Positions 579 through 12,046 are shown, counted from the stretch's first letter. The stretch is 12,046 nt of DNA from Bdellovibrionota bacterium (GCA_044356295.1 JBIKWN010000071.1:1-12046); one strand, 5' to 3'. Numbers and translations: made by a program. The notes: generated by a model not told the origin, from the sequence alone.

Positions 579-1328
579 ATGTGGAAGAAATATACATTCA
601 TCATTTTTTTCTTTGTATGCACAAGTTGCCCAGTTGTTTTTTCTGAGGAAAGTCCGCGTCAGGGGCTTTTTGAAGTTGAGGCTGGAGCCTTGTTTACAAA
701 TAATATGTTGCTCTCTGGGTACAACCAGGCAAATGCAACTTCTGATTGGGATAGTTTTGCTCCAACGGCTCGTCTTGAATATTGGTCAGTTAAAAAAGAT
801 GGTTGGAACTACGGAGTTGTTGCCCAACCCCTTTTTGCAAGTTACTCGGGTACGCTCAGTAGTGATTTTAATACCGATGAGAGCGAGTACAAAAAAAATG
901 AATCTGGTAGTTTGAGTTATCAGTTCCATACCTTGAGGGGCACTGCTAACTACCCAATCGTTACCTCTGCTGATAAAAAAAGTTATCTCCGTGTTGGTGG
1001 TTCTCTTGTTACAAGGTACGTTGATATTAAGTTTAAAGCAGGACAGGAATCATTTCAGAGAAGTGGTTTTATTGCTTTTCCGGTTGCGAATTTTGAAGGA
1101 GAGCTTTTTTTAGACTCAGACTATAGCCTCTTTACGAGAACCGATTTTTTCCCTGCTTCAGGGGGTGAGGGGTTATACGATTCGCTTATCGCTGTTAGAA
1201 ATCACTTTGATACGAGCAGCGTCGATTTTGGGGTACGTTTATTCTTCGGAGGCTATGATCCTGACGAGGAAGGAAAATTTGCCAATAAGATTTTTTATAC
1301 AGGTGCTGTTATTCGATACCTGTGGTGA
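579..1328 (+). CDS. Hypothetical exported protein, probable outer-membrane beta-barrel
   Basis: 249-aa ATG ORF. N-terminal MWKK plus hydrophobic signal peptide, many alternating aromatic/polar segments (e.g. GWNYGVVAQP, YLRVGGSLV, VDFGVRLFFGG), and a C-terminal aromatic strand (YTGAVIRYLW) typical of beta-barrel OMPs. Confidence 0.7.
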   Translation: MWKKYTFIIFFFVCTSCPVVFSEESPRQGLFEVEAGALFTNNMLLSGYNQANATSDWDSFAPTARLEYWSVKKDGWNYGVVAQPLFASYSGTLSSDFNTDESEYKKNESGSLSYQFHTLRGTANYPIVTSADKKSYLRVGGSLVTRYVDIKFKAGQESFQRSGFIAFPVANFEGELFLDSDYSLFTRTDFFPASGGEGLYDSLIAVRNHFDTSSVDFGVRLFFGGYDPDEEGKFANKIFYTGAVIRYLW

Positions 1329-1347: not shown

Positions 1348-1734
1348 CTACTTCCCTTTATAGTTATCAGTAGTTTTTTTGACCTCAGAAGCAGTGGTAT
1401 TTGGCATTGCATCATTTTTAGAAATTCTTAAATCCTGAACATAACATTCGCCGCCTTCAGAATGAGTGATGCTTTTCCATTCTTTGCATGACTCTTTCGG
1501 GATGCTTCTGTCTTTGCATGTATAAGGGCAAGCAGACCTCGTTACAGCACCGTGTGCATCAACTGCTCGGTATTCGAAAGGCTTCATGTCGCCGTCTGTG
1601 TTCTCTCTCCATTCCTCTGCGCTAATTGTAAATGCAAAACACAGCGCAGCTGTTGAGAACCCAACGATCAGGTCTCGTTTCGTTATGTAGAGATTCGTTA
1701 AGCGGCGAGGAGTTTTGTAATCAGTTTTAATCAT
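1348..1734 (-). CDS. Hypothetical small secreted protein with four Cys in the mature part
   Basis: Part of track ORF 1348..1782. ATG at 1734 (MIKTDYK) or 1746 is more plausible than the TTG at 1782. Basic N-region, hydrophobic LIVGFSTAALCFAFTISA, probable cleavage ISA|EE, then CPYTC...C...C. Fills the gap between the OMP gene and mraZ. Confidence 0.6.
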   Translation of the reverse strand: MIKTDYKTPRRLTNLYITKRDLIVGFSTAALCFAFTISAEEWRENTDGDMKPFEYRAVDAHGAVTRSACPYTCKDRSIPKESCKEWKSITHSEGGECYVQDLRISKNDAMPNTTASEVKKTTDNYKGK

Positions 1735-1860
1735 CGGTAAATCCATAAGGTAGCAGAGCTTCCCTTTTAAACGAATAACCAAGGAAGACTATTCAACGAA
1801 AACTATTTTTTCTTCTCGTTTATCCGCGAAAAAGTTTTCCAAACACTTAAAAAAACAACT

Positions 1861-5594: not shown

Positions 5595-5657
5595 TTACTA
5601 GATTATCGATTGATAAAAAGATTCCCTTTCCCGTGACCCTGAGCGTAGGCGTGAGCG

Positions 5658-5738
5658 AAGGGATAGGAAAATCAAAGCTCTTTCTGTAAGGAGCTGATAG
5701 AATGGACTATTGCTCAAGACTTTATGAGTGAGTGGTAT
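5658..5738 (-). mobile_element. IS91/ISCR-family oriIS-like end, copy 1 (81 bp)
   Basis: aagggataggaaaatcaaagctctttctgtaag...gagtgagtggtat; 75/81 identical to 11667-11747. Minus strand ends GCTTTGATTTTCCTATCC, resembling IS91/ISCR oriIS ends (TTCCTAT core), and lies directly downstream of a transposase fragment. Confidence 0.8.
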
Positions 5739-5928
5739 AAGTTACGATGTCATCTTGAATGGTAAGTTTCTCTAGGGATATGGGTCCCCGTTCAACGTAC
5801 CTTGCAACAAACTTCTCTGAACCCTCATCCTGGAAGGGATCTCCTAACCACACCGAGAACCCCGTATGCTCTTGAGATAGGATCTTCCTGTCCGTTATCT
5901 TTGAAGCATCTATCGTTAATTTTAGTAC
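5722..5928 (-). pseudogene. Internal fragment of an IS91/ISCR-family HUH (rolling-circle) transposase including the catalytic Tyr region
   Basis: Manual translation of a stop-to-stop frame: VLKLTIDASKITDRKILSQEHTGFSVWLGDPFQDEGSEKFVARYVERGPISLEKLTIQDDIVTYTTHS*. HxGFSV...ARYxxRxPISLExL...VTY matches the IS91/ISCR transposase core (Tyr codon 5797-5799). No start codon upstream of the motif, and the HUH and Zn-binding regions are missing. Confidence 0.8.
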
Positions 5929-6128
5929 TTACATACGCAATATAATTAGTTTTTTGTGAATTTTTTTTGTACAGAAAAATGTATTTTTCCTGATACAAAT
6001 GAAGATTAATAAAAGATATAGGTCAGGAGGGTGAACGGGTCCTATAAATCATGCTATGTCAAGATTTTTTAAGCCCTTTGTATCGTACATGATTCGTTTT
6101 GTTTTTAAAGAATGTAAATATAGCCACA

Positions 6129-8315
6129 ATGCATAGTAGTACATCACAATCGAATCAACCTCTTGAAATTGAAAAGCAGCTTTCGAATCCAGCACCCCTC
6201 GAAGCATATGAAAAAATAGAAAAGCTTATTTCTCTTTACGAGGCACTAGTCCCACAAATATATATAGATGAAGCTCAATTAGAAAAGGAAAGAGCTGCAG
6301 GCCAAGGTATTGAGTCGATAATGCAAGATTCACTCAATAATTCGAAAGTTCTATTTACTTTACTTGCAGTTGATAAGTCAATAAATCAATTAACTGGTCT
6401 GTTTGTACGAGAGATAAAATCACGTGGTTCCTTTGTGGCTGGAGCTGAGCCATTCAAATCACTAGCACTGTCAGGAGGTACTGATGAAATATTCATACAA
6501 GGTTTACAAGAAAGATACCAAAAGTACTACTGCTTACCTCCAATTATTAAAGATGAAACTGTGACTAGTCTGAATGAAGCACTATTGAGTCTCGGTGAGA
6601 GTGATTTAAAAGAAGTAGCTTTAAAACTCAGTGACGCAACAAAAAACGTAACCCAGTTTCTTTCTGTAAAGACTGTCTTGCATTCGATATTGATGTTTAA
6701 TCAGCCATTACGAGAAGAGCAACAAAGTCAAAATATCCTCCGTGAATTGGCGGAAACAATTTTATTAGTATCAGATCCTCGCGATTTTCTTCGTGGTAAT
6801 CTTGCAGCTTGTTTAATTGCAGAAGAGTCAATAAGAACTTTTCGAAGAAATAAGATTTCCAACATAAGTGATTCTATGGGCGAAAAGGCTGATGGACATT
6901 TTTTTGAATTAGCCCTCTTCGATTCTGACCTTAGAAATGAACTGTTGCAGTGTCGCACACTGCTTGGTCCGCTTTCAGAGCTACCGATTCCAGTGATTAA
7001 AATGGCTCGTGGAATTGCTTCAAATAAAGAACGTCATATTTCTGATGTTTGCAATGAGGTATTAGAACTTTGGAATAATTCTCAATTCGGTTCTCTTCCA
7101 ATGGAAGAAGCAGAACTTGTTTCGTCATATCTTTTCAAGTTCTTCAGAGAAAAAAAAGAACCTGATATTTCTTTTTTGAAAGACCTATTAAACATTCCAT
7201 CAGATCTTATAACTTTTCCTCATCATTTTGGAGAAAAAAAGACTGATATCTCTGAAGTTGGATCACTTTTTCGTCAATCGATTATTGATTCTCTTCCGCA
7301 TCTTGAAGAGAAGTACAAACTATTTTGTGAGAACATATCCATAATTAAAAAATTAAATCCAGCGCAATGTGTTGAAATCGCATATATAGCTATGAACCCA
7401 GATGTATCTACTGTGCGCTTAAGACATGTATTTAAGATTTTTGACGCACATTCTTTTGCCCCCTCTATTTTGAATAGAAAAAATATTCTTGAACTAGATG
7501 AAGATATTCTTAAAACACTATCACAGATACCTTCAGGTAAAATTCAATACGCAGACTATAGGAAATGTCTTAAAGCTCAAGATTTCACAAACCTTTCTAC
7601 CATTCTAAATGATTATTTAGACAATTCTTCTCTTCCTATAGAAGATAATGTAATTCCTTCTGTCGCAGAAAAAGTCGATAGCGAAAAAGATCAAGTTTCA
7701 ATACTTCTTAATGGAATCACGAATGAATTTATGAGAAGACGTTTCGAATACCAAAGAAGTCTTATTCAAAAAGACTTTGATGCTTTTGGTAATACTCTGG
7801 TTTCTGCAGTACTCTTAGAAAGTTCCTCTACTCGAAGAAAATATTTACAACTTTTAGAATCTGGGGAATCTATGGCAGATCGAAGAGATGTTTTAGGAAT
7901 TGATACAGTGGCATTAAGGCAAGCAGAAGTTATCCCAATCTTTTTAAAGCAATTATTTTATAATTGTGATGAGGAGCAAGTAATTCAAGAAGATTGGAAG
8001 CCTTCCTTTTCAAAAGAGTTGTCGGGTTCTTTTAAAAGAATTGTGTTCATATCTGGATTTGCAGATAACTTTCAAGTTATCGATCATAATTTAAAGAAAA
8101 AAGTGTCATTTGTGAGCTGTGACCAGGTGAGAAACTTACAGACTGGAGAAAATGACCTAGTGATACTCTTAACACCTACTATATCTCACTCCTCAGGAGA
8201 GCACGTTGAGAAAATGGCACGTGCTAACAATAGCGAAGTTGTTCTTTTAGATGAAAAAGGAATTAAAAGGATAAAACTTACTATTGAGCACTTAAGAGAC
8301 TACATCGAAATGTAA
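6129..8315 (+). CDS. Large hypothetical protein, mostly helical, with a C-terminal DUF2325-like alpha/beta domain
   Basis: Track ORF 6099..8315 (738 aa from TTG; first ATG at 6129). The last ~94 aa (8031-8315: KRIVFISG...DLVILLTPTISHSSGEHVEKMARANNSEVVLLDEKGIKRI) follow the DUF2325 pattern as I recall it. The remainder is not recognised. Confidence 0.75.
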   Translation: MHSSTSQSNQPLEIEKQLSNPAPLEAYEKIEKLISLYEALVPQIYIDEAQLEKERAAGQGIESIMQDSLNNSKVLFTLLAVDKSINQLTGLFVREIKSRGSFVAGAEPFKSLALSGGTDEIFIQGLQERYQKYYCLPPIIKDETVTSLNEALLSLGESDLKEVALKLSDATKNVTQFLSVKTVLHSILMFNQPLREEQQSQNILRELAETILLVSDPRDFLRGNLAACLIAEESIRTFRRNKISNISDSMGEKADGHFFELALFDSDLRNELLQCRTLLGPLSELPIPVIKMARGIASNKERHISDVCNEVLELWNNSQFGSLPMEEAELVSSYLFKFFREKKEPDISFLKDLLNIPSDLITFPHHFGEKKTDISEVGSLFRQSIIDSLPHLEEKYKLFCENISIIKKLNPAQCVEIAYIAMNPDVSTVRLRHVFKIFDAHSFAPSILNRKNILELDEDILKTLSQIPSGKIQYADYRKCLKAQDFTNLSTILNDYLDNSSLPIEDNVIPSVAEKVDSEKDQVSILLNGITNEFMRRRFEYQRSLIQKDFDAFGNTLVSAVLLESSSTRRKYLQLLESGESMADRRDVLGIDTVALRQAEVIPIFLKQLFYNCDEEQVIQEDWKPSFSKELSGSFKRIVFISGFADNFQVIDHNLKKKVSFVSCDQVRNLQTGENDLVILLTPTISHSSGEHVEKMARANNSEVVLLDEKGIKRIKLTIEHLRDYIEM

Positions 8316-8375
8316 GGGATAGGAAAATCAAAGCTCTTTCTGTAAGTAGTTGAGAGTATCTGCTATTCATCAAGA
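8314..8375 (-). mobile_element. IS91/ISCR-family oriIS-like end, copy 2 (shortened, 62 bp)
   Basis: First 33 bp identical to copies 1 and 3; 58/62 identical to 11667-11728, then diverges. Overlaps the TAA stop of the upstream 738-aa ORF. Confidence 0.78.
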
Positions 8376-8385
8376 GCTAAAGATT

Positions 8386-8482
8386 TTGGTACAGGGTAAC
8401 TTTCAATATGATTTAAACTACTGAAGATATTTATAATCCGAGTTACCTTGTACCAATTATTTCTCTTGTACCAATTATTTCT
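8386..8482. repeat. 16-bp inverted repeat pair plus an 18-bp tandem duplication
   Basis: ttggtacagggtaact (8386-8401) and agttaccttgtaccaa (8441-8456) are 15/16 complementary around a 39-nt AT-rich spacer. cttgtaccaattatttct occurs twice in tandem (8447-8464, 8465-8482). Confidence 0.9.
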
Positions 8483-8500
8483 CCGTGAATGTGCCTAACT

Positions 8501-11254
8501 TCATTCGTTAGTTTTCGGCCTACGGCTTGAAATTCTTTCTGACTGTTCTTGTGCCTGTTGACGATCTTGCTTAATTGCACCAATTAATCCAGCGGTTGTG
8601 ACCAAGAGTAAAAATAGGGCGCCACCAGCAACGACTTCTGGTGCAATAGGACGCTTACCTTCAACCCCACTTAACGGATGATTATTTATTTTCCTTTGAG
8701 TTTGCTCGAAAGTTTGAAGATTCTTATAATATTTTTTAAACTCATTTTGAATAATCGAATCCAGCTTGGCTGTATTTACGTGACCACCAGAAGATTGATC
8801 TTTTAGGAAGTCCAGCATTTCCTTTGACACGCTTTGCTTGAGTTCTGGGTGTGCTTTTAAAACTTCTCTAAATCGTGAAACATGATCTTTTATTGAATAA
8901 TGTTGATCTTTACGTGTGCGAAGCGCAGAAACTATCTGGGATGCAATATCAGCGCCAAATTCAATGTTTAGTGCATCAGCTAATGGCTTGACAGTCTGCG
9001 TGCTGTAGCAATCCATTAATGCTTTACTTCCAACTTTAGATTCTAAAATATCCGCGATAACTCTATATGCAGGATAGCCTTCGGGAACCCAATGCGCCGC
9101 GGATGCTCCAAGTCTTTCTGTAAGCGCTTCATTTAGACCGCTGTAGGAAAGAATTGATTCCTTAGACGGTACTCCCAATAATTCCCCTGCGTAAAACTGT
9201 GCAGAATGAATTAGCTCATGACTTAGCGTATGGTTCAATAGATACCCTTCACGTACGAATACACTTTTGGTCACGGGGTTTGCAAATCCTGCAAATGGTG
9301 TACCAATCGTTACTTTTGTATCATCAGCAAGGATATAAATCTGTGTCTCACGTAGTTTATTAGCAACTTTCATCCCAAATTCTTTACCATGGAGCCTTCC
9401 AAAAATATCCGCAACAGCAGATTTTACTTGCGCGCGTTGCCACACCATTTCGGATAGGATATGTGGTTCAATGGAAAGTCCGTGTTCTACATTAATAGTT
9501 GTAAACAAAACTCCATCTCTTCTTAGTTCGTATCTATCAAAGCGAATGGTATCTATGTGTAAACAATAAGTAGAAACACCGTCATATTTCATTTCCAGTT
9601 GTTTTAAAAATTCCATTTTTCTTGAAGATGGAATTACTTCGCTGTTCTGTAGACGTATCTCTAGGTCGGTTTTATGTTTTGGGGTGATTATTGATGAAGA
9701 TTTTTGAGGTTGGCTGGCAGCAAAGGGAGCTTGGCTATTAAGAATAGTTTCAAATTCTTTAACAGAATGCGCTTGGAATGCTTGACCAGCGATCTTGAAA
9801 TGTAAAATTCCGTTAGGACTAGTTTTTATAATCTCAATAGCGGCAGAGGTATTCTTTAACCCACGTACGACAATTCCTGCCGCATTCTTAAAGGTAAATG
9901 CCTTACCTGCAGCTAGTGCCAATAGATTTAGGGAACGCTCAAAGCGGTCCGCACTGGACACACTAGGATCTCGATCCAGAACATTAATTGCTTTTGCAAA
10001 ATCAATTATTGTTGATGGTGATTCTTTCCATACATCTTTCAAATATCTACTTATGTCGCTACTTGCCAGTTGATTCTGCTTTGCTAGTAGGGCAGGAAGA
10101 GTAATCGATCCAGAAACGAATCGAAGTGCCGCATACGCAAATGGAGCATCTGCTGCTGAAACACCAGTTAGCTTACCAAATAGATCAACGGGTATTGAAG
10201 CGATGCCAGCGATGTTTCTGTCCGCTTGAAAGGCTTTTCGAAATTGTTGGAGCTCGGGACCCGAGAGCTTTTTACCTTTTTCAAATTCATGATAAGCAAG
10301 TGCTGCTTTGAAGAACTTTTCTTCTTTTAGATATGCATCTTTTCTGCTTTTAGAAAGAAATTCTTTTTCCTTAAATGGATTTAGTTCGTTTATTTCGTGC
10401 TCTTCTCGTTGAGCTGTAGTTAGTCTTCCATCAAAATTAGTCACTAAGGTTAACTCACTCACCTGTCGCGTTGCCTCGCTCAGTTCAATAGGCTTTCCGT
10501 CATTTGATTTTACGACCTGTTGGTGTAAATCCAATGCTTTAAGAAATGATTCATACGAAAATGCAAGTTCTTTAGGCCAGTGCTTTTCCCATCTAGAAAG
10601 CAAAGGATCGACACTTTGGTGATGTTTTCCAAGTGCTACAAATTCTAGTTCGCGTTTATTAATCGTAAGTTGCCCTGATCGATCTTTGCTTTCGTCTAGT
10701 AGGGCAATTTTTAAGAATCCATTCATCGAGATCTTTACCCATTTTTCTGGGTTGTTACGGTTCATGAGGTTCCAGGAACTAGCAGCTTTTTGTAGTTCCG
10801 CAATTGTTATGCCCCCCTCAGTAAGAATACTTTTTGCGTTGCTTAGAAGAAACTTTTGAAAAGGCTTGGATTTTTCAAAAGCAAGTTCTTCATCTGTTAG
10901 ACCAAGCGCTTTGAATATTTCGTCTCTGTTGATTGCAACGGCATTTCCCTCGACGCTTGCAAGTTTTTCAAAGCTGTTGATGTTAAAGTAAACCTTGTTG
11001 CCTGGGTGCTGAAGATTAAACTGGGCTATTAGATTTTTGATCTCAACTACATCTATCCCTCCGCCTGATAGCAACTGTGTGCCTTCAGAAAACATGTGTC
11101 TTAAAAACATAGTTGATAAAGAGAACTCAACTGGGGTAGAGCGAACAGTCGTCCGTTCACTTTCTTTTGATATGCCAGGCAGCTTTCCTGCCTTGCTTTC
11201 ATTAGTTTCAGTACTGTGCGACTTATTTGGGTCATTGGATATAGGTTGGTCCAT
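8501..11254 (-). CDS. Large hypothetical protein with a zincin/gluzincin-type metallopeptidase domain and a C-terminal TM helix
   Basis: 917-aa ATG ORF with aagg upstream. HELIH (aa 679-683, nt 9206-9220) followed by GLNEALTE (N708-E713, nt 9116-9133). Hydrophobic VVAGGALFLLLVTTAGLIGAI near the C-terminus. Two ~70-aa repeats near the N-terminus. Confidence 0.8.
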   Translation of the reverse strand: MDQPISNDPNKSHSTETNESKAGKLPGISKESERTTVRSTPVEFSLSTMFLRHMFSEGTQLLSGGGIDVVEIKNLIAQFNLQHPGNKVYFNINSFEKLASVEGNAVAINRDEIFKALGLTDEELAFEKSKPFQKFLLSNAKSILTEGGITIAELQKAASSWNLMNRNNPEKWVKISMNGFLKIALLDESKDRSGQLTINKRELEFVALGKHHQSVDPLLSRWEKHWPKELAFSYESFLKALDLHQQVVKSNDGKPIELSEATRQVSELTLVTNFDGRLTTAQREEHEINELNPFKEKEFLSKSRKDAYLKEEKFFKAALAYHEFEKGKKLSGPELQQFRKAFQADRNIAGIASIPVDLFGKLTGVSAADAPFAYAALRFVSGSITLPALLAKQNQLASSDISRYLKDVWKESPSTIIDFAKAINVLDRDPSVSSADRFERSLNLLALAAGKAFTFKNAAGIVVRGLKNTSAAIEIIKTSPNGILHFKIAGQAFQAHSVKEFETILNSQAPFAASQPQKSSSIITPKHKTDLEIRLQNSEVIPSSRKMEFLKQLEMKYDGVSTYCLHIDTIRFDRYELRRDGVLFTTINVEHGLSIEPHILSEMVWQRAQVKSAVADIFGRLHGKEFGMKVANKLRETQIYILADDTKVTIGTPFAGFANPVTKSVFVREGYLLNHTLSHELIHSAQFYAGELLGVPSKESILSYSGLNEALTERLGASAAHWVPEGYPAYRVIADILESKVGSKALMDCYSTQTVKPLADALNIEFGADIASQIVSALRTRKDQHYSIKDHVSRFREVLKAHPELKQSVSKEMLDFLKDQSSGGHVNTAKLDSIIQNEFKKYYKNLQTFEQTQRKINNHPLSGVEGKRPIAPEVVAGGALFLLLVTTAGLIGAIKQDRQQAQEQSERISSRRPKTNE

Positions 11255-11269
11255 GGCTTACATAAACCT

Positions 11270-11449
11270 TCATAATTTAAGGATCGATACAGTTTTGTTA
11301 CTTTCTGTAAGGACTAATTTATGTGTAAACAGAATGTTAGATCTCGTAAAATCTATTAGAAGCTGGCTAGTAGGGTGGCTCACGCCTATTCCACCTATGG
11401 ATTGCGGTATTGAACGAGTTTCTTTTTCAATTGAAAAACCACCACCCAT
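11270..11449 (-). CDS. Putative 59-aa small protein upstream of the metallopeptidase gene
   Basis: ATG at 11449 preceded by GGAGG (11455-11459) at 5-nt spacing. MGGGFSIEKETRSIPQSIGGIGVSHPTSQLLIDFTRSNILFTHKLVLTESNKTVSILKL*. Stops 15 nt before the 917-aa start. No recognisable family. Confidence 0.4.
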   Translation of the reverse strand: MGGGFSIEKETRSIPQSIGGIGVSHPTSQLLIDFTRSNILFTHKLVLTESNKTVSILKL

Positions 11450-11666
11450 ATAAACCTCCCCAAAAGAACAAAACTATAAAACGAAAAAATATCTGATTAA
11501 TATATTTCGGTTGGAATTAGCCAAACATTACACTTATCGACTAAATATGGCATTTTGGTTCTAGGTGAATTTGTTATTTCACTTTGAAGACTTACCACAT
11601 ATTTCTTCGATGACGTTGTGTGGATAATTCAAGGCAAGCATAAACTCAGAAATCATTGAAAGAAAA

Positions 11667-11747
11667 AAGGGATAGGAAAATCAAAGCTCTTTCTGTAAGT
11701 AGTTGATAGAATGAGCTATTCATCAAGACTTTATGAGTGAGTGGTAT
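11667..11747 (-). mobile_element. IS91/ISCR-family oriIS-like end, copy 3 (81 bp shared; probably in its native context)
   Basis: Same block as 5658-5738, lying about 135 nt downstream of the stop codon of a transposase C-terminus on the minus strand, which is the normal tnp-to-oriIS arrangement in IS91/ISCR elements. Confidence 0.82.
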
Positions 11748-11881
11748 TTTTAGTTCAATCTGTTTGAAGAAAGACTGAAATCTGCAGATAAACACACCAC
11801 AAGTGCATGGGGTTAGGGCAGATCCAGAGTGTATTTTTGGTTTTGGTTCCTTGGATAGAGAGATCCATCAGTGCATTTTAG

Positions 11882-12016
11882 TTACACATCATAGTCTGGG
11901 ATTTCATCGAAGAAGATCTCATTTTTGACAGGGGGATCTGGAATAGGAGGAGCGGTGTAATTTGGAATTCCCAGAGAATGCATGATTTTCTTAATCTCTG
12001 GAGCATCGTGTAGAAA
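11882..12016 (-). pseudogene. C-terminal fragment of an IS91/ISCR-family transposase
   Basis: Minus-strand frame open from the window edge: VHDLFALPSL-FLHDAPEIKKIMHSLGIPNYTAPPIPDPPVKNEIFFDEIPDYDV*. F..D...I.KI...LG.P...PP resembles the IS91/ISCR tail. The CPxCG..M.II motif expected just before it is not present in any frame of 12017-12046, so it is probably truncated near 12017. Confidence 0.65.
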
Positions 12017-12046
12017 AAGGGAGGGTAATGCAAAAAGATCATGCAC

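Follow-up and report, generated by a model that had tools for sequence, protein, structure and literature searches.

How did about 6.4 kb of DNA, carrying two large orphan genes and three short direct repeats, come to lie between ftsI and murE in the genome of a Bdellovibrionota bacterium? The locus occupies a contig of 12,046 bases (GCA_044356295.1, JBIKWN010000071.1:1-12046; contig C89 of genome G000), and the whole of this contig, hereafter the window, was analysed. The assembly comprises 2.96 Mb (2,963,702 bases) in 128 contigs and is 93.6% complete. A first-pass annotation of the window had read the locus as an array of units, each bounded by the oriIS terminus of an IS91-type insertion sequence (IS) and each mobilised in trans with one large gene. 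We find that the repeats are IS91-family termini and that the array is decayed, and with moderate confidence we interpret the insert as the remains of rolling-circle gene capture, similar to that of the IS common region (ISCR) elements, by an IS91 subfamily common in Bdellovibrionota.

Insertion into the dcw cluster

In the congener G002 (86% complete), just 77 nt separate the penicillin-binding protein (PBP) gene from murE, the next gene. Because ftsI and murE are so close in this genome, the ~6.4 kb at 5661 to ~12019 is, on comparison of the two sequences, an insertion into the division and cell wall (dcw) cluster relative to the congener. G002 is the sole genome of the same genus that holds the ftsI-murE locus, the locus being absent from the assembly of G001 (62% complete), and because it carries the empty site, the before/after comparison is unusually clean. 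Both outer edges of the insert are IS-derived DNA. The non-IS spacer left around it amounts to ~66 + 50 nt (~116 nt), compared with 77 nt in G002, and includes a 31-nt repeat resembling repetitive extragenic palindromic (REP) elements. Given IS-derived edges and almost no other extra DNA, the simplest account is that the IS itself delivered the insert. The first-pass annotation had called for a comparison of the locus downstream of ftsI; this showed the insert to be absent in the congener, but no pair of genomes differing by gain or loss of a whole module was available.

The repeat as an IS91-family terminus

Repeat searches and blastn confirmed one family of three direct repeats (5658-5738, 8314-8375 and 11667-11747) in the same orientation, spaced by 2656 and 3353 nt, as the annotation had described. 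Copies 1 and 3 share 93% identity across 81 nt. Taken over the same length (8314-8394), copy 2 is 74% identical to copy 1 as the reference; in blastn only its first 62 nt (8314-8375) are alike, with 94% identity to copy 3. The first 33 nt (AAG and then GGATAGG...GTAAG) are identical in all three copies, and all 6 and all 4 inter-copy differences are placed inward of them. On the minus strand the copies end in the 13-mer …GATTTTCCTATCC, whose only three occurrences in the assembly are these copies, and they are followed by CTTC (copy 1), CTTA (copy 2) and CTTT (copy 3), that is, by CTTN in every case. The CTTN is preceded by …CCTATCC, with one C more in the window than in relatives, so the exact end is uncertain by 1 nt. 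A genome-wide count of the repeat, also suggested by the annotation, added nothing: blastn-short and sensitive blastn found no fourth copy in the whole assembly, and no module was found elsewhere in it.

From sequence similarity, this repeat is the oriIS-side end of an IS91-family IS. The minus-strand frame at 5722-5928 recovers 154 proteins, the best with 90-92% identity and all but a few with PF04986; the full-length proteins of this set (~420-432 aa) mostly carry PF14319 besides PF04986. Segments 5731-5886 and 11885-12016, both on the minus strand, match residues 237-288 (90% identity, 52 aa) and 380-423 (58%, 45 aa), respectively, of the 423-aa protein P0004. The transposase pieces that the annotation placed in units A and C are thus real, and the window holds fragments only. 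P0004, P0007 and the transposase of locus L052 pass NCBIfam NF033538 (IS91 transposase) with 161-170 bits against a cut-off of 125 (P0004, 161.4 bits) and stay below NF052416 (ISCR clade) with 139.2-149.7 bits against a cut-off of 925. The fragments in the window, which are too short, gave no Pfam match and a weak NCBIfam match (E 0.19).

To compare termini, loci of relatives were taken from a scan of one genome per species, which yielded 76 loci with transposase relatives, mostly in metagenome-assembled genomes (MAGs) of Bdellovibrionota. In intact Bdellovibrionota relatives the terminus reads …TCAACTACTTAC…TTTTCCTATCC and lies ~240 nt past the transposase stop; in five intact loci (L047, L052, L074, L081 and L087), …TCAACTACTTAC(A/G)AAAAAGCGATTGGTTTTCCTATCC occurs 239-241 nt past the stop codon. 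The window terminus, …TCAACTACTTACAGAAAGAGCTTTGATTTTCCTATCC, is the equivalent end, 212 nt past the stop of the transposase tail fragment; IS91-family elements have their oriIS on this side of the gene. A terminus profile (nhmmer) matches the three window copies (E 1e-13 to 1e-14) as well as the ends of more than 20 of the 76 loci. The first-pass assignment of the repeat to an IS91-family oriIS-side terminus therefore holds, both by its position behind intact transposases and by the adjoining CTTN, and the intact transposase ending in the same ori that it had proposed to look for exists in those five loci. A CTTN-type junction was present in 15 of the 20 ori copies examined in genome G009 (counting the terminal C) and in only 4 of 12 in other relatives.

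According to excerpts of one paper on IS91 (PMC13181058), the last 82 bp of the oriIS-side end suffice for function, an adjoining tetranucleotide of the CTTG/GTTC type is essential, and termination at terIS fails in 1-10% of events, mobilising adjacent DNA. A terIS was not found in the window, either with a profile of the upstream region from 15 relatives or with the upstream region of the cognate transposase gene on contig C69 of the same genome, and the window modules are therefore not complete IS91-family elements. In intact relatives, ~80-130 nt of sequence ahead of the transposase gene are conserved, suggesting that the live element probably has a terIS.

In copy 3, TTGATGAAT can pair with ATTC-ATCAA ~30 nt from the end, at the site of a 7-bp palindrome in L047, whereas copies 1 and 2 have mismatches at the pairing site, their palindromes being eroded. 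When all three copies were folded as DNA, for either strand, the hairpins were weak (z-scores of just -0.6 to -2.0) and were set aside as evidence.

Three decayed units

Unit A consists of ori copy 1, a 49-codon internal piece of the transposase gene, 213 nt of other DNA and a 738-aa open reading frame (ORF) on the opposite strand (Table 1). The transposase homology passes through the codons TAT ACC ACT, and homology to copy 3 starts at ATACCACT; a deletion of ~530 nt across this shared 8-mer, ATACCACT, would have joined the fragment to ori copy 1 by microhomology. Unit B begins with 59 nt of ori (8317-8375), followed from ~8380 by a palindromic repeat of ~85 bp, a 917-aa ORF and 412 nt of upstream DNA. 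The ~85-bp repeat (GGTACAGGGTAACT…AGTTACCTTGTACC) has 29 matches in other contigs of the genome, ~20 of them at least 70 nt long, and its contig in the Logan collection of assembled sequencing runs has a depth of 49 versus ~8 (about five-fold), with many loose ends.

Unit C comprises ori copy 3, a spacer of 134 nt and the last ~45 transposase codons. Its transposase homology ends at ~12019, 50 nt ahead of the start of murE, and the window overlaps the next contig, C48, in which the sequence continues. Module C is hence not cut by the window edge, contrary to the first-pass suggestion that it runs beyond it.

The GC content of unit A is 34.4%, within the lowest 1.6% of 2.4-kb genome windows, whereas that of unit B (39.0%) is typical of the genome (mean 38.6%). 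Unit A is compositionally foreign and unit B is not, and this difference indicates that the two probably have separate origins.

Table 1. Features of the insert and its edges (window coordinates; a dot marks features without a strand)
Feature	Position	Strand	Remarks
REP-like short genome repeat, left flank	5630..5660	.	End bases …GCGAAG give the minus-strand CTTC adjoining ori copy 1
oriIS-side terminus, copy 1	5661..5738	-	Ends …GATTTTCCTATCC, with CTTC at 5660-5657; nhmmer E 1.8e-13
Internal IS91-family transposase fragment	5739..5885	-	~Residues 237-290; up to 92% identity to PF14319+PF04986 proteins
DNA 5' of the 738-aa gene	5886..6098	.	Beyond 5885 unlike the transposase and its copy on C40
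Orphan gene, 738 aa from TTG 6099 (likelier start ATG 6129)	6099..8315	+	Open ORF; GC 34.8%
oriIS-side terminus, copy 2	8317..8375	-	Terminal 59 nt and flanking CTTA; no transposase remnant; nhmmer E 3.4e-14
Palindromic multi-copy genome repeat, ~85 bp	8380..8465	.	Where ori copy 2 breaks off
Orphan gene, 917 aa	8501..11254	-	Open ORF; oriented like the transposase remnants
DNA 5' of the 917-aa gene, as far as the CTTT adjoining ori copy 3	11255..11669	.	No terIS-like sequence
oriIS-side terminus, copy 3	11670..11747	-	Best-kept subterminal palindrome; nhmmer E 1.5e-14
Spacer (11748-11881), then transposase stop and last ~45 codons (11882-12019)	11748..12019	-	Gene truncated at ~residue 378
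Start of the murE upstream region	12020..12046	+	Contig overlap with C48; bridging contig of run X1; TIGR01085

Two orphan genes

Both large genes are orphans, as the annotation had stated. Neither was found in 60 relatives of the order, two congeners included, and these relatives also offered no case of the genes standing at the same locus without ori copies, which would have spoken against an ori-linked origin. None of the findings that the annotation had listed as refuting its reading was obtained. In a word-indexed search of 5.8 billion proteins, the 738-aa and 917-aa queries, each taken as a whole, recovered only themselves.

The 738-aa gene ends in a TAA stop that overlaps the AAG adjoining ori copy 2. 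The C-terminus of its product matches DUF2325 below threshold in Pfam (25.4 bits against a cut-off of 33.6), and Atlas leads stand at 0.86; PADLOC returned nothing and PHROGs only matches with E at least 0.038. For the 917-aa protein, an exhaustive HMMER search found eight distant relatives, all through residues 19-460 and at best 40% identical, none with an informative Pfam domain. Its C-terminal half, for which no relatives were found, has a single HELIH motif and a terminal hydrophobic helix. Searches of Pfam, NCBIfam, PADLOC, PHROGs and PDB sequences were all empty, Atlas leads reached at most 0.82, and an AlphaFold2 model of residues 540-880 made without an alignment had a pLDDT of 39. 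The label "metallopeptidase-like" given earlier to this protein thus comes down to one HELIH motif, with no support from family, PDB or fold, and the proposed role of the cargo in conflict found no backing in PADLOC (0 of 2 proteins).

The same IS in the host genome and in relatives

Elsewhere in the host genome, part of the internal transposase fragment recurs on contig C40 at 97% identity; C61 has a weak match (42 aa, 55% identity to P0004 residues 304-345), and C69 (G000:C69:49273-49533) an open cognate transposase N-terminus of 87 codons, 80% identical to P0004, which has its upstream region and runs off the contig end. No intact cognate transposase was found in the assembly, and the open N-terminus on C69 means that an intact copy may exist unassembled. 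In the congener, a transposase-tail remnant of 82% identity lies at an unrelated locus (G002:C63:7945-8044; L032 ~1500-1600), indicating that the IS was already present in the genus.

The host genome also carries, at G000:C66:1-4900 (L044), two direct copies of another IS91 subfamily that flank a single gene for a 489-aa ATPase (PF01637, AAA_14, DUF234). Their transposase has 415 aa and scores 168.5 bits with NF033538, and the copies are 86.7% identical over 1152 nt. These copies were rejected as the source element, as they have ~48-50% identity to P0004 and to the internal fragment of the window and an unrelated downstream end. A match to the repeat in another genome (G010, E 2.5e-4) had no transposase nearby and was treated as chance.

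Across the order, a covariance model of the terminus matches 43 of 91 genomes, including all three of the window's family and all 36 of family f8. Genome G009 of family f8, an assembly of 100 contigs, has 41 ori matches and 12 transposase fragments, none full length, while G068 has 19 ori matches, two full-length transposase genes and one covering residues 3-373. The 20 ori copies examined among the 41 in G009 have distinct flanks, and their pairwise similarity upstream of the end extends over 56-274 nt. Copies truncated on the transposase side that keep the ori are common, as in L056 (residues 266-422), L081/L212 (423 nt) and L054 (288 nt), the last two being 100% identical to their full-length neighbour.

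Same-orientation arrays in which non-IS genes separate the ends were found repeatedly. L212 has three ori ends in the same orientation, in the order transposase-ori, 473-aa gene-tail-ori and 170-aa gene-ori; L213 and L216 each consist of an ori, a gene, a decayed transposase including the N-terminus and another ori in the same orientation. In L215 four small genes lie between two ori ends, and in L214 one CBS-domain gene does (892 nt). Same-orientation ori pairs within 6 kb number 6 in G068 (0.39 expected) and 10 in G009 (1.89 expected); opposite-orientation pairs, 3 and 7 respectively, also exceed expectation. The module with the 473-aa gene of G068 occurs in none of the 35 other genomes of its family and so gives no evidence of a module moving twice.

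Genes for ATPases of the AAA_14/DUF4143 type or related ones directly adjoin IS91-family ori ends in three genomes (L216:2045-3385, L215:5214-6350 and L044:1582-3006) and may be a frequent passenger or preferred neighbour of these ends.

Surroundings of the locus and environmental sequences

Upstream of the insert, Pfam identifies a SIS-domain gene, two genes without a match, mraZ, rsmH, a weak ftsL and the class-B PBP gene ftsI. The two unmatched ORFs lie upstream of mraZ, at 579-1328 (plus strand, 249 aa) and 1348-1782 (minus strand, 144 aa). The REP-like unit of the left flank, ~28-31 nt long (CCCGTGACCCTGAGCGTAGGCGTGAGCGAAG), is scattered over ~45 further sites of the genome (for example C1:7171-7198 on the plus and 7211-7239 on the minus strand); ~45 of the 50 matches listed extend over no more than query positions 1-28/31 (= 5630-5660), and many of them form close inverted pairs. 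The end of this unit is exactly where ori copy 1 is located.

On the other side, the final 130 nt of the window are the start of contig C48 (99.2% identity, blastn). murE is encoded on C48 just past the overlap (TIGR01085, 484.7 bits), with its ATG ~23 nt beyond the window end, and the ORFs after it look like candidate murF, mraY and murD. The insert places 6.4 kb with genes on both strands between ftsI and murE; murE-murF-mraY-murD can therefore hardly be co-transcribed with mraZ-ftsI, and a new promoter must be in or behind unit C.

Four sequencing runs were compared as Logan contigs (k = 31), which cannot reveal rare forms. Independent lake samples hold the same modules at 100% identity, and depth is even across the modules (7.3-9.5 in run X1, ~5-6 in X2). 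One contig of X1 (record 8) spans 11670-12046 and extends 5353 nt further through the remainder of C48, bridging the two contigs of the MAG. Circle junctions joining 5661 to 8316 and 8317 to 11669, predicted in the first-pass annotation, did not appear in the contigs of the four runs, nor did any joint of module deletion, rare forms being beyond the reach of contigs. When metagenomes were scanned for an exact 18-mer taken from the repeat, 59 loci were returned, all chance matches limited to ~25 nt and none like the insert; records of the source genome were possibly excluded from it.

Origin of the insert

In the origin that we favour, an IS91-family IS, with an HUH/Y2 transposase and rolling-circle transposition, would have built the insert between ftsI and murE. 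The orphan genes would have arrived as DNA co-mobilised with an ori-bearing element by one-ended or read-through transposition, as in ISCRs, and successive units may have inserted at, or next to, the ori|CTTN junction already in place, the transposase's own cleavage site. Later deletions, one of them through the 8-nt microhomology, and the arrival of the native palindromic repeat would then have destroyed the transposase genes. The end state would be the present one: three head-to-tail remnants, each with an oriIS-side end and CTTN, in which an internal piece (A), nothing (B) or the last ~45 codons (C) is left of the transposase. The locus would now be a fossil, stable in the population. The arrays L213, L216 and L212 of relatives are the intermediates that such capture predicts.

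Several observations weigh against this account. The 738-aa gene and the transposase remnant beside it run antisense to each other, and module B lacks any trace of a transposase, so that an IS with its flank is not demonstrable there. No empty-site or donor-site pair was found for any single module, leaving read-through capture as an inferred step; both terIS searches of the insert were negative, and the ancestral state is known from the one congener locus only. Ori remnants of relatives cluster in both orientations (16 same-orientation and 10 opposite pairs in G068 and G009 together), which fits IS debris in permissive regions equally well as targeting of junctions. Finally, every Logan contig stops inside the 33-nt core, and the joins across it rest on the MAG assembly alone.

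The likeliest of the alternatives, though in our view an improbable one, is that both genes came by another route as an accessory island and that 5'-truncated, dead-on-arrival IS copies, or copies eroded later, inserted independently at CTTN sites within and next to it, the modules being the gaps between debris. Relatives frequently have ori copies truncated to varying extents on the transposase side (L056, L081/L212, L054), their ori remnants cluster in both orientations, the 20 examined copies of G009 share just 56-274 nt with one another, and insertion at a stop codon is unremarkable given that CTTA is TAAG on the other strand. However, random later insertions would not be expected to leave IS-derived DNA at both outer edges and ~116 nt of spacer against 77 nt in the congener; no integrase, tRNA or direct repeat in the window explains how an island entered, and the bodies of modules A and B are unlike in composition. 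Assembly of the array through homologous recombination of full IS copies, by loop-out of an IS-gene-IS unit and re-integration into a resident copy as proposed for units of the ISCR1/IS26 type, followed by erosion, appears quite improbable. An IS-gene-IS arrangement does exist in this genome, at C66 in the second IS91 subfamily, and the literature on ISCR arrays, in the excerpts of PMC7722449, invokes recombination besides transposition; yet three full copies would each have to lose the terIS-side part and keep the ori end, and the ori copies, 6-7% different in their inward parts, are not recent recombination products of one copy. We see very little likelihood that the contig is an assembly artefact in which the 33-nt identical core links regions that do not belong together, or a circular element of its own. 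At k = 31 no Logan contig of the four runs confirms a join across the core, and the same graph would arise if the spacer held one truncated IS alone and units A and B together formed a circle, but the copies diverge right past 33 nt, so that ordinary 150-nt reads and larger k resolve them, and both the even depth and the bridged link between C89 and C48 speak for a correct assembly.

The cassette interpretation deserves separate comment. It holds that ori-plus-cargo units (5661-8316 and 8317-11669) were excised as circles by a transposase acting in trans, with a nick at one ori and an end at the next, and were stacked site-specifically in an integron-like manner. Each module does run exactly from one ori|CTTN to the next, so initiation and termination could use identical sites, and because identical nick sites bound each unit the model is mechanistically coherent. 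The identical terminal 33 nt with all differences further in, the transposase-less ori-bounded modules L214 and L215, and G009, whose assembly has 41 ori matches and lacks a full transposase gene, agree with it, and a live copy may exist unassembled, as the C69 N-terminus suggests. Nevertheless, we regard it as improbable: no module, cargo gene or repeat recurs in the host genome, the 473-aa module of G068 is absent from the 35 other genomes of its family, the orientation bias in relatives is weak (16 versus 10), and erosion has reached the palindromes of two of the three copies. The missing circle or excision joint in the four runs also counts against it, as weak evidence. Judging by the transposase debris in them, units A and C started out as ordinary or truncated IS copies and were probably autonomous or dead on arrival, not designed as cassettes. 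The non-autonomous, integron-like system of the first-pass annotation accordingly lacks a second module copy, a terIS and a circle joint. A broader form of the idea, equally doubtful or nearly so, is that the oriIS end of this subfamily in Bdellovibrionota is a portable, transposase-independent mobilisation tag, such that DNA between same-orientation ori|CTTN junctions could be excised in trans as a single-strand circle, initiation and termination taking place at identical sites, and re-inserted at another ori junction. If this were true, transposase-less cassettes would pile up head to tail, forming a Helitron-like bacterial equivalent of integron arrays, in which orphan proteins, many of them secreted or membrane-associated, are shuffled.

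Comparison with known systems

Like IS91, IS801 and IS1294, the element has a transposase of the IS91 family, a terminus downstream of the gene, an adjoining CTTN and a preserved terminal block of functional size (~60-80 nt). Unlike them, no complete element is present: terIS is missing, the transposase is fragmentary, and three tandem ends have foreign genes between them. The terminus sequence and the subfamily (~420-430 aa, Bdellovibrionota) are also not among the named members, and Bdellovibrio was unmentioned among the matches listed in a limited literature search on truncated IS91-family elements and oriIS.

The likeness to integron arrays of attC sites and IntI is one of look only, in that both are rows of units with a single recombination-type site apiece and, as a rule, one gene. 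A tyrosine recombinase, attC and attI are all missing here: no recombinase was found among the 13 window proteins scanned, and the repeat is an IS91-family end, not an attC. In addition, the genes differ in orientation and no cassette exchange was seen. Helitrons, the HUH rolling-circle transposons of eukaryotes, capture genes and leave truncated copies that retain an end. The insert resembles them in its proposed chemistry, its truncated end-keeping copies and its proposed capture of host DNA; it differs in being bacterial, in having no helicase domain and in its ends.

There is also a parallel with ISCR1 and ISCR2, in which same-orientation copies each stand beside a different gene; ISCRs capture their neighbours by read-through, as we propose here. 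The window fits their architecture, with oriIS ends, no terIS recognised and unrelated genes on the terIS side of same-orientation copies, although the live element, judging by its intact relatives, probably has a terIS. Truncated ISCR copies that keep the ori end are known, and tandem ISCR1-blaNDM-1 units have reportedly been observed. Tandem tet(X) structures are ascribed to repeated ISCR2 transposition in the excerpts of PMC7722449. In contrast to these elements, the transposase here lies outside the ISCR clade (NF052416), the cargo consists of orphan genes in an environmental, predator-like bacterium instead of resistance genes, the site is a chromosomal dcw cluster, and all copies in the window are dead.

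In resistance regions, arrays of ISCR copies in one orientation, each with its own captured gene next to it, are established. The window thus shows a familiar kind of gene capture in a host where it is unusual; it demonstrates no new cassette system and, by itself, no new mechanism. ISCR-style capture by the IS91 family, known almost exclusively from resistance plasmids, is hereby extended to freshwater Bdellovibrionota that are uncultured, with orphan genes as the cargo and the ftsI-murE junction, usually invariant, as the landing site. Because ori-keeping, transposase-less remnants are abundant in the sister family (36 of 36 genomes, up to 41 in each), this is a good lineage in which to test mobilisation in trans and the premature termination that yields dead-on-arrival copies.

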